Shown here piece after piece: positions 18,001-21,000 of a DNA stretch of 64,000 bases (its first letter is position 1; the number at the start of each line of letters is the position of its first letter). A program made the position numbers. This DNA is from Escherichia coli (GTDB lineage Bacteria > Pseudomonadota > Gammaproteobacteria > Enterobacterales > Enterobacteriaceae), in the NCBI RefSeq assembly GCF_003018115.1, contig NZ_CP027457.1; one strand, 5' to 3'.

Positions 18001-21000
18001 GGGAGTTTTCTTAACGCCGCCACGCGATCACACCGACTGAGTGCATATTCTGTCAGCAATTCTGTTGCCCGCTCTCTGTCATTCATACTGATGCCCATTT
18101 TCCCAAGGAACGCAGAAAACCCCATCTCAGCCCGATTCTGTGTCATGCCCTGCGCGGCCATCACATCAGTAATACTCAGCGCATCTTTTGACGTTGAGGC
18201 CGATGCATCAGTCAGGCCGGGGGATTTTGGGGAGTAGTATTTCGGTAAATCTTCCAGTTTCATTTTTTGGCCTGCCCTTCATGCATTATTTGGTAAATCT
18301 TCACGCCAAGTCGCCCACCCGTAACGGGCTGACCACGCACCACATGAATTTCATCAAACTGCTCATCATCAATGAGTACTCCCGCATGCGTCAGCGCATC
18401 CAGCAACGCTTTCAGGATATTGTCCAGGTCACGACGACGCTTATCCGGCGGCTCGGCAATAATCTTTATCACCAGCCTTCCGGACAGATGTAATTGCAGG
18501 CGCTGCTGGCGAACAATAAGCGCCACCTCCCGGCGATAACGCTCACCGGCTTTTGATATAAAATATGTGCTGCCACGACGTCGCCAGTAAGTGTTCACCG
18601 TCGGCGGCCAGGGCAAAACAAACTCTGTACGCATCAGTCACCTCCTTTACCCAAGTACGCCTGTTGCAAAGGCGTGATCAAGAAAACGAAAAATCAAATC
18701 AACCTGGGAACCATACTTTTCTTCGAACGCCAGCGGATCTGCATGAAGTTCGTTGTGATGTTCCCGGCACAGCGGTAGCGTGAAAATATCGTGGGCCTTT
18801 GTTCCCATTCCTCCCTGACCATGACCAATCAGGTGATGTGGATCGTCAGCTGGCTTACCACAACATGCACACGGCTGTGTCTTTACCCAGCGTGTGTATT
18901 TTTCGTTGGCCCAGCGGCGACGTTTGGGCCGCTTCATGAAAGATTCAGGGGACTCCGGATCAACGGTAACGCTGACAACTGTTTTTTCCTGTGGCGTGGT
19001 TTGTTGCTGGTGGGCGTGAGGCGGTGGTGCTATGTTTTTTGTCCGCTGCTTCAGGATGCTGGAGGCGGTCAGCTCTCCCGATATGATGTCGCTCTCACGG
19101 TACACGGAGCGGATTTTTTCCGCACGTAACCCCAGAGAACGACGTAATACGGCCTCCGGTAGCGCGTCCGCCACCTGATTGCGGACCGCCCACCAGGATA
19201 ATTCAGCCAGCGACAGCTCCCGCTCCTGTGTGCCATTCATTGCGTGACGTATGACGTCAGTCATCCAGGCTGTCAGGTTTTGATGAGCAAGTTGCTCGAG
19301 TGATTCGGATGTCTGGTCACGCAGCTGGTTGTCGCAGTGCCAGCACAACACCATTGCGCCGGTACCATAACGGTGAATGACGGTTTCGCTGTGATGATAA
19401 TCGCCGTGTGGCCACTGGCAGGATTTAATATGGCGCAACAGCCAGTCAGACAATGCACCAGCACCACCAGCAGCACGAATCACCCGTGCGTTACTGAAAA
19501 ATGGCAGTAATGATTTATCCTCCGCCAGCGGCTGGCGAACGGCAGGGACGACTCCGGACGGCAGATCGCGCATGCTTTTCGGTTCAGGCTCCACCAGCAC
19601 TCGAGGGTTATGAAATACTTGCATGGATTCACGGCCCGGCCTAAGGACCACCAGCCCGAGTTCCGGTACCAGAACAGGTCGAAGCAATATCCGCACGTTA
19701 CCTCCAGATCCGTTGCTGGTATGTGCGGGATGGGCGCGGTAGGCGTTCGGAATAAGGGAGCCTGACATAGATTATCCAGTGACGATAATCGAGGCTGAGG
19801 GCTTTCTTAATCTCGTATCCGCGTCTGCGGTAGTTCTGAATCAGCCACTCGGCCTGCTCTTCGGTGCAGGGGTCGTGCTGATACCAGTCAGATTTGAACG
19901 CATGAGAACGCCGCCTGTGCCGGATGGCAAGGTCGGTATCAGAATTGTGAAATTTGGTTTTGTGCGCCATCTGTTTTCTCTGCTGGCGCAGCAGGTGCCA
20001 GTTGTTCAGGCTGGCGTGCGGCAATATTGTCTCTGATTTCTGTTGTCGTCAACAGGCAGCGTGCTATCATCGAATAGTGTTCTATCCTACTCCGTGAGGT
20101 TTACCATGCGTACAACCCAACAATTCAGCATTACATTAACTAACGAAATGGCTGACATGGTGCGCGCCCGTGTGGCTTCCGGTGCCTATGCTTCAGAAAG
20201 CGAGGTCATTCGTGAAGGGCTTCGCGCACTGAATGAGCGCGATAAAGCAATCGAAGCGTGGTTAACGCATTCAGCCGCCCCCTCTCTTGATTCTATCCGC
20301 GAAAATCCAAACAACGGACGCTCCATTTCACAGGTTCGCGCCGCGATTCGATCCGGGAAGTAATCTGCATGACATATGAAGTCATCATTACTCCTGAGGC
20401 CGAACAACAAATAATCAACCTGCACAGATATATAACGGAGAAAGCAGGGAACGTCATTGCTGACAATTATGCCAATGCGCTTCTTGATTATCTTGATGGG
20501 TTTTCTACATTCCCGCATCGGGGCAATAAACGCGATGATATTCGCCAGGGGATGCGGGTAACTCATTTCCGCCACAGAACGATTATTGCTTTTGCCGTTG
20601 ATGGCAGAAAAGTCTTTATTGTCGGTATCTATCATGGTGGGCAAAGTTATGAAACCGATTTCTTATAAATTTTTACCCACATCATTCCGGTGGTAGAATA
20701 AACCATCCGCCCCCTCTCTTACTGGCGGATTCGTAGGCTATATAAATCAAAGATCCCGGCTCATGTTTGTGTCGGGATCTTTTTTCGGCGATTTATCCCC
20801 AGCGGCAAATCGAATACACCACCAGCGCCACCGCCATCGCAATTCCTACCGTGGTGAATGCCTCAGGCCAGGTCATCGATTCACCTCCTGCTCAATATTT
20901 TTAAGGTCATTTTCCGCATACAGTATTGCTGTCCTGGCTGCTCGTAACCGGGCTTTGGCGTTTTTCTCTTCACGTTCAAGTTTTGCCACAGCTTCACGAA

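Follow-up and report, generated by a model that had tools for sequence, protein, structure and literature searches.

The closest relatives with reported activities of the protein described here are two phage nucleases of the HNH type. The nickase Gp16 of phage PhiNM1 binds RecA, which enhances its activity (PMC12817073, 2026). It arrests host growth in a RecA-dependent manner, is needed for efficient phage replication, and requires both of its ends, including an N-terminal NinB-like domain, for the interaction with RecA (PMC12817073). Ref of phage P1, an HNH endonuclease, depends on RecA and is reported to cleave just RecA-bound DNA and D-loops (PMC4713147, PMC3973344). On the level of families, DUF968 and DUF1364/YbcO together constitute group 7 of the His-Me finger superfamily (Jablonska et al., 2017), for which a role in recombination was proposed without experiments (PMC5714182). 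The name DUF968 was also used by Curtis et al. for Orf-HNH fusions of Gram-positive phages, which are today classed as HNHc_6 (PMC4118853). Here, we describe a DUF968 protein encoded directly upstream of rusA in an Stx2 lambdoid prophage of Escherichia coli, within a stretch of 64,000 nucleotides from contig NZ_CP027457.1 (assembly GCF_003018115.1) that we call the window.

The protein has two folded parts with a variable linker between them: an N-terminal domain with a conserved Cys/His site and a C-terminal HNH finger with a complete centre. We predict it to be a nuclease, and from sequence comparison and the analogy with tested relatives we see a somewhat better than even chance that it is an endonuclease, nicking or branch-selective, that works with the adjacent resolvase on intermediates of phage replication and recombination. 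Its parts are as follows; residue numbers refer throughout to the 349-residue protein that starts at GTG 19696.

18647-19696, minus strand: coding sequence of the YdfU family (Pfam DUF968), 349 amino acids, with start codon GTG at 19696-19694 and stop codon at 18649-18647; WP_024200897.1 in the NCBI Prokaryotic Genome Annotation Pipeline (PGAP)
19127-19696, minus strand: N-terminal domain, residues 1-190, modelled by AlphaFold2 (AF2) with a predicted local distance difference test score (pLDDT) of about 90-97; PHROG 11007, 'unknown function'
19328-19420, minus strand: zinc-type tetrad of the N-terminal domain, residues 93-123 (C93, H101, C118, C121), from counts in 34 homologues
18962-19126, minus strand: variable linker, residues 191-245, of varying length in the alignment, with a disordered Pro/Gln-rich segment at 229-237 (pLDDT below 50)
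18650-18961, minus strand: C-terminal His-Me finger (HNH) domain, residues 246-349, with the basic lead-in 'VDPE..FM.RPK..RW' and an invariant K258
18743-18871, minus strand: HNH core, residues 276-318, from conservation counts and the alignment with Gp16

Within the YdfU/DUF968 family, the gene is an ordinary member that was already catalogued; RefSeq/PGAP names it 'DUF968 domain-containing protein', and its description refines a known DUF but adds no new kind of system. Its match to Pfam PF06147 (DUF968) scores 255.8 bits against a gathering cut-off of 27.8 (E 2.8e-76), spans the entire profile (positions 1-171 of 171) and covers residues 160-346. PHROG 96, which carries the label 'HNH endonuclease', is matched in full length (E 1.8e-173), and YdfU of K-12 is 86% identical across 349 of 349 residues without a gap. 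Membership was judged on three tests, and the Pfam cut-off, the full-length colinearity with YdfU and the prophage context of nin genes, RusA and Q all place the protein in this family. Related families do not claim it: PF16784 (HNHc_6, the family of PhiNM1 Gp16 and phiETA Orf20) reaches 22.7 bits against a cut-off of 26.6, matching at profile positions 123-174 of 204, and the window protein has no NinB/Orf-like N-terminal domain of the kind expected of HNHc_6; PF16786 (RecA_dep_nuc, the family of P1 Ref) remains at 14.2 bits against 26.9; and PF07102 (YbcO, DUF1364) gives no Pfam match. NCBIfam and PADLOC yielded no matches either, and a role in anti-phage defence was discarded on the PADLOC result.

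An original prediction, made from the sequence alone, had tentatively called the protein 'NinG/DUF968-like', of which only the second half holds. NinG is neither found as a PF05766 match at E<=0.1 nor by tblastn with the lambda protein, which returns nothing in the window at E<=1. We also looked for a characterized family without nuclease features to which the protein could belong, an outcome that would have spoken against that prediction, and found none. In a search of 1.84 billion cluster representatives, 3303 relatives were retrieved at E<=1e-3, about 35 of them full-length and with identities of 24-82%. Database proteins in which the DUF968 N-terminus appears 'fused' to tail-fibre, tail-tip, portal or capsid domains (P0144, P0191, P0192, P0248, P0125, P0170) were rejected as real architectures; most likely, they arose by deletion within prophages or as chimeras of assembly.

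The C-terminal Cys/His motif was described correctly from the outset (CACCGKPADDPHHLIGHGQGGMGTKAHDIFTLPLCREHHNELH, with the elements CACCG...HH...CREHH), and its HNH-like character is supported both by the DUF968/His-Me assignment and by a conserved HH...D...H...H centre. Structural statements in this study are based on an AF2 model built from a 56-sequence alignment (pLDDT 91.3, predicted template modelling score 0.63), as the single-sequence model was unusable (pLDDT 39.9). In this model, the finger forms the beta-beta-alpha unit that characterizes the His-Me (HNH) superfamily, with strands at 285-288 and 306-309 followed by a helix at 311-319, and it has histidines at both the general-base position on strand 1 and the metal-binding His/Asn position on the helix. 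Across the alignment columns of 34 diverse homologues, D303 is present in every sequence, H288 in 30, and H287, H314 and H318 in 29 each. These five residues form an HH-x14-D-x10-H-x3-H centre, a spacing that we presume to resemble the colicin DNase motif. In the lambdoid clade, which includes the window protein, the catalytic histidines are invariant (15 of 15 sequences).

From these patterns, we propose C276, C279, C310 and H313 (C or H in relatives; CxxC...CxxH) as zinc ligands and H287/H288, D303, H314 and H318 as an intact catalytic centre. Loss of C279 tends to go with loss of C310, which is absent from five of the eight sequences without C279 and kept in all 26 that retain it; this argues that the two share one metal site. 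One subclade (P0162, P0173, P0208, P0242, P0265) represents a zinc-less variant of the finger, in which C279 and C310 are both gone and the HH...H...H centre is kept. When viral structure models were searched with Foldseek, the matches at E<4e-3 were exclusively DUF968-type or unnamed phage proteins of about 90-170 residues, closely followed by HNH- and Ref-annotated ones; since these matches are short proteins, the finger is an independent module.

The comparison with Gp16 extends to the catalytic residues themselves. Over 57 columns of the HNH core, the two proteins are 44% identical (hhalign probability 95%, E 3.8e-8) and share an identical layout, in which CxxC is followed after nine residues by a histidine, then by CxxHH and xxxH; the six residues that were mutated in Gp16 (C148, C181, H184, H157, H185 and H189) are all kept in the window protein. 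Gp16 even passes the DUF968 cut-off (29.1 bits). Like the window gene, it is an early gene, and PhiNM1 likewise carries RusA. It differs, however, in its N-terminal domain, which is NinB/Orf-like, whereas that of YdfU is unrelated to NinB, and in its setting, as it belongs to a phage of a Gram-positive host (Staphylococcus) and adjoins ssb and replication genes.

Ref (PDB 3plw) is the best structural match of the window protein, and a profile comparison between it and the finger gives an E of 2.3e-5. Ref has no folded zinc domain; its N-terminus is instead a basic, disordered tail of 76 residues (PMC4330346). Besides Ref, P1 also encodes PdcB, a separate protein of the DUF968 family. YbcO of prophage DLP12 (PDB 3g27) is a remote relative, detected through the finger alone (hhalign probability 84%, E 7.6e-6). 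With 96 residues, it consists of the finger domain without an N-terminal domain and belongs to its own Pfam family, PF07102; this short relative occupies the same place in DLP12, before rusA.

The N-terminal half was rightly seen as a long region without an assigned function. Residues 1-159 have no Pfam family, no sequence relative in the PDB and no similarity to YbcO or NinB. The AF2 model shows a fold of short beta-strands and helices, with a beta-hairpin (105-110/113-118), a helix at 119-125 and further helices. Its Cys/His tetrad is almost universal among the 34 homologues (C93 in 33, C/H101 in 33, C118 in 34, H/C121 in 34), as are W119 (33) and D122 (31), which together with N123 yield an 'LCWHHDN' consensus; strand 1 carries no conserved catalytic histidine. 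The order of a knuckle, a hairpin and a C-x2-[CH] motif at the start of a helix mirrors the C-terminal finger. When the two domains are compared by BLASTP, their motifs line up (E 5.9), and hhalign aligns them colinearly over 75 columns (P 0.038), with a score that was reached by 7 of 150 column shuffles in each direction. We take the domain to be a structural zinc module, possibly a degenerate copy of the C-terminal finger, the duplication being a weak hypothesis.

The gene model differs from the original prediction in its start. The open reading frame upstream of rusA is real and runs on the minus strand without interruption for 373 codons, from ATG 19768 to the stop codon at 18647-18649. 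The ATG assumed at that time lies too far upstream, and PGAP, a Shine-Dalgarno sequence and conservation all point to GTG 19696 and thereby to 349 residues.

19701-19705, minus strand: Shine-Dalgarno sequence GGAGG, 4 nucleotides before the GTG and conserved together with it in 76 of 77 related copies
19697-19768, minus strand: 24-codon 5' extension of the earlier reading frame, overlapping the 3' end of the upstream 90-residue gene in another frame, with no Shine-Dalgarno sequence before its ATG

The TAA codon of the upstream gene (19700-19698) falls between GGAGG and GTG, and judging from its sequence, this layout is a typical translational-coupling arrangement. An in-frame ATG 24 codons upstream exists in just 7 of the 77 related prophage copies, and three more have an ATG 11 codons upstream; PHROG 96 and K-12 YdfU (349 residues) begin at the same residue as the GTG start. 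Because the GTG and its Shine-Dalgarno sequence are conserved while the ATG is rare, the first 24 codons, which lie inside the preceding gene, are very probably not translated in this frame and probably not part of the protein.

Selection on the gene was assessed in 48 distinct E. coli prophage copies, collected by tblastn with the low-complexity filter switched off. The ratio of nonsynonymous to synonymous substitution rates (dN/dS) is 0.11 for the N-terminal domain, highest for the linker (0.24) and lowest for the C-terminal domain (0.045); 53 of 54 ungapped copies are intact. Given the DUF968 match and the dN/dS of 0.11, the reading frame is not a product of chance. A 1.9-kb segment comprising the DUF968 gene, rusA and Q has a match in 4496 of 5426 complete genomes and is 100% identical in eight complete genomes of Shiga toxin-producing E. 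coli.

Within the prophage, the gene is part of the delayed-early 'nin' operon and has the same orientation as the replication genes, rusA and Q. Along the minus strand, the replication genes are followed by a nin-like region, a 90-residue gene, the DUF968 gene, rusA, Q, tRNA genes and stx2; the phage is toxin-converting, and its DUF968 gene precedes stx2A by about 1.7 kb.

19698-19970, minus strand: 90-residue 'upstream gene' annotated by PGAP, PHROG 1212 (E 4.4e-36), whose stop codon adjoins the DUF968 start
18260-18634, minus strand: rusA, Holliday-junction resolvase (Pfam RusA PF05866, E 1.1e-16), starting 12 nucleotides past the DUF968 gene
17442-18263, minus strand: Q antiterminator of the PF03589 type, 273 amino acids (Pfam Antiterm E 5.6e-52; PGAP), overlapping the end of rusA by 4 nucleotides
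17047-17298, minus strand: three tRNA genes between Q and stx2A, Arg-TCT, Arg-TCG and one with a CAT anticodon (Met according to ARAGORN, Ile according to PGAP)
15997-16956, minus strand: stx2A

The 90-residue protein has no Pfam match; it was considered as a relative of K-12 Rem, but the two proved unrelated on comparison. The Q antiterminator contains a DnaJ-type CXXCXGXG zinc motif and two PF03589 matches. NinG, NinB and NinH are all absent from the window. Just upstream of this operon segment, on the opposite strand, PGAP annotates a ParD/ParE toxin-antitoxin pair (20106-20363 and 20369-20668, both plus strand). Two unrelated elements likewise have toxin-antitoxin modules close upstream of their DUF968 genes, K-12 Qin with relBE and hokD and P1 with phd-doc, which may be coincidence or may reflect an insertion hotspot for accessory genes. 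A hypothetical protein of 131 residues (20873-21268, minus strand) has weak coiled-coil-like matches to LmuB/SMC-type PADLOC models (E 1e-3 to 1e-2), which are probably compositional. Three small RNA matches were obtained with Rfam in the window: a strong one to STnc100 just downstream of the stx2 operon (15427-15641, minus strand; 160 bits against a cut-off of 47), one to the antisense RNA DicF, which lies, as it does in K-12 Qin, in the prophage's early-left part (28148-28199, plus strand; 62 bits against 48), and a borderline naRNA4 match (50736-50804, minus strand; 60.8 bits against 59.5) that may mark a REP-type element or the prophage edge.

The arrangement around the gene is widely kept. 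Among close relatives, 76 of 78 loci have RusA directly downstream, and 76 of 77 have the 90-residue gene directly upstream. YdfU itself (b1560, Qin cryptic prophage) has the same length, a GTG-type start and a position just before the Q gene; there, rusA is missing and ydfU abuts ydfT (Q), whereas the protein shows no substantial difference. In distant relatives (24-48% identity), the DUF968 gene is again found between replication/nin genes and a late regulator. RusA is adjacent to it in some of them (L005, L007, L095, L099) and two genes away in others, behind a KilA-N or ANT gene (SfV, a Morganella phage and L098). KilA-N genes were seen inserted between RusA and the DUF968 gene in several lineages (L089:1618-2427, L091:1620-2408, L131:2687-3484). 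Elsewhere, other resolvase-type genes are neighbours: VRR-NUC is adjacent in L097, DUF1064 in L129, and a weak DUF1064/endonuclease-I-like gene in L006. Across 80 divergent viral loci, RusA occurs within 1.5 kb in 38, which represent 8 of the 13 clusters formed at 60% identity. DUF968, or the resolvase, is followed by a Q of one of three unrelated families, PF06530, PF03589 and PF06323 (L131, L113, L127, L101, L122, L130, L118), or, in P1, by lpa (L002:5037-5489); the place immediately ahead of the late switch is kept whichever regulator serves.

With these data, the preferred reading of the protein as a nicking or branch-selective endonuclease can be spelled out. After prophage induction, each of the two domains would bind one structural zinc. 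H288 would act as the general base, while H287, H314 and H318 would hold Mg2+ or Mn2+, and DNA would be nicked. Targeting to branched or recombinase-bound DNA (for example D-loops, forks or junction precursors) would be the task of the non-catalytic N-terminal zinc domain and of the basic 'RPK..RW' lead-in, and the nicked replication and recombination intermediates of the phage would then be finished by the adjacent junction resolvase, here RusA. Stimulation by RecA is possible, by analogy with P1 Ref and PhiNM1 Gp16 as the closest tested relatives. The protein would thereby fill the slot that is held in lambda by Rap/NinG (PF05766), a branch-specific endonuclease that likewise belongs to the His-Me superfamily and whose gene lies three genes upstream of Q, at the end of the nin region farthest from the promoter. 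Lambda Rap differs in its domain organization and shows no detectable sequence similarity, but because the prophage has no NinG, an analogy of position, and perhaps of function, is plausible.

Several observations weigh against this reading. PDB sequence searches with the protein alone, the family profile and the N-domain profile found no genuine relative, Foldseek against the PDB gave a best E of 0.3 or worse with none below, and literature searches found no published assay of any member of DUF968 proper. RusA is missing from the fetched flanks of 42 of the 80 divergent loci and is not near the gene in P1 or K-12 Qin, and its adjacency may simply come from both genes having their place in the small nin region; since it is weaker in divergent relatives than in E. 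coli, we regard it as supportive and not decisive. The RecA dependence of Gp16 and Ref is not transferable, because their N-terminal regions, a NinB-like domain and a disordered basic tail, respectively, differ from that of the window protein. A further objection comes from PdcB of P1 (L002:3905-4945), a full-length homologue with 26-27% identity over residues 56-372 of the 373-residue query and a DUF968 match of E 3.6e-50. It has the same two-domain layout including the N-terminal zinc tetrad and is encoded directly upstream of the late activator lpa, though not beside a resolvase. The PdcB clade (PdcB, P0205, P0225, P0256) lacks H287, H288, H314 and H318 while keeping both zinc sites, K258 and D303, and by this residue pattern probably comprises pseudo-nucleases. 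Because the catalytic histidines were lost in this clade, the family-wide function may not be catalysis. Furthermore, pdcB is non-essential in P1 and has no assigned function (PMC10695390, PMC10067587).

Other explanations were considered as well. Rather unlikely is a host-directed takeover nuclease that binds host RecA, nicks or condenses the host chromosome early after induction and shuts down host replication to the benefit of the phage, instead of processing its recombination intermediates. This idea draws on the early operon from which the gene is expressed, on Gp16, the closest tested relative by profile, which inhibits host growth through RecA, and on the RecA-dependent nuclease Ref as best structural match. 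Yet the similarity to Gp16 does not extend beyond some 57 residues of the HNH core, and the NinB-like domain, at one of the two ends that Gp16 needs to bind RecA, is unrelated to the N-terminal domain of YdfU. Most E. coli genomes also keep the gene intact, cryptic prophages like Qin included, and nothing points to a dedicated immunity gene; PADLOC gave no match, and P1 can dispense with pdcB. The PdcB clade would speak for a non-catalytic DNA-binding or regulatory factor, with its pair of zinc modules binding DNA or a protein partner near the early-late switch and with an HNH centre that is incidental or vestigial. The location directly upstream of a late regulator in many lineages, be it one of the three Q types or Lpa, agrees with this idea, but lambdoid gene order is conserved for modular reasons, and adjacency to Q therefore does not imply a function. 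As the catalytic histidines are invariant in the lambdoid clade and the C-terminal domain has the lowest dN/dS, we consider such a factor improbable for the window protein.

Other roles of HNH proteins fit the locus poorly. Free-standing HNH genes of phages are often homing endonucleases, and the label of PHROG 96 would suit a selfish gene cutting alleles that lack it; this is very improbable, however, in view of the fixed position between replication/nin genes and Q across relatives of 24-48% identity, the large conserved extra domain, the strong purifying selection, the translational coupling to neighbours and the lack of an intron or intein context. Assistance to the terminase in cos cleavage, as provided by HK97 gp74, is a common role among siphovirus HNH proteins (background in PMC12817073). 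It is hardly credible here, as the gene lies in an early operon distant from the terminase genes, and L007 has a separate PF01844 HNH gene beside the terminase and its DUF968 gene beside RusA. Equally hard to credit is orthology with lambda NinG/Rap, which is to be distinguished from the functional analogy discussed above. The shared genome region and His-Me superfamily had made it worth considering, but the Pfam and tblastn searches for NinG already refute family membership, and the published His-Me groups of the two proteins differ (24 versus 7; PMC5714182).

The DUF968 gene is among the commonest prophage genes of E. coli, and its K-12 copy, ydfU, is still without an assigned function. The residue-for-residue match to the catalytic centre of Gp16, together with Ref as the best fold match, provides a testable hypothesis for it, namely that of a zinc-dependent nickase that is possibly stimulated by RecA. 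A further-reaching scenario, which we put forward as a speculation and judge unlikely in its entirety, would assign separate tasks to the two domains: a dead HNH-derived zinc finger (about residues 93-125), taken as an internal duplicate of the C-terminal finger, would recognize branched or RecA-coated DNA and direct the live C-terminal nickase to it. Together with the neighbouring resolvase (RusA, VRR-NUC or DUF1064), it would form a portable 'nick-and-resolve' cassette before the late regulator, which would control the yield of phage DNA and hence the dosage of Shiga-toxin genes after induction. The nickase hypothesis itself could bear on the replication of Stx phages and on their toxin output.

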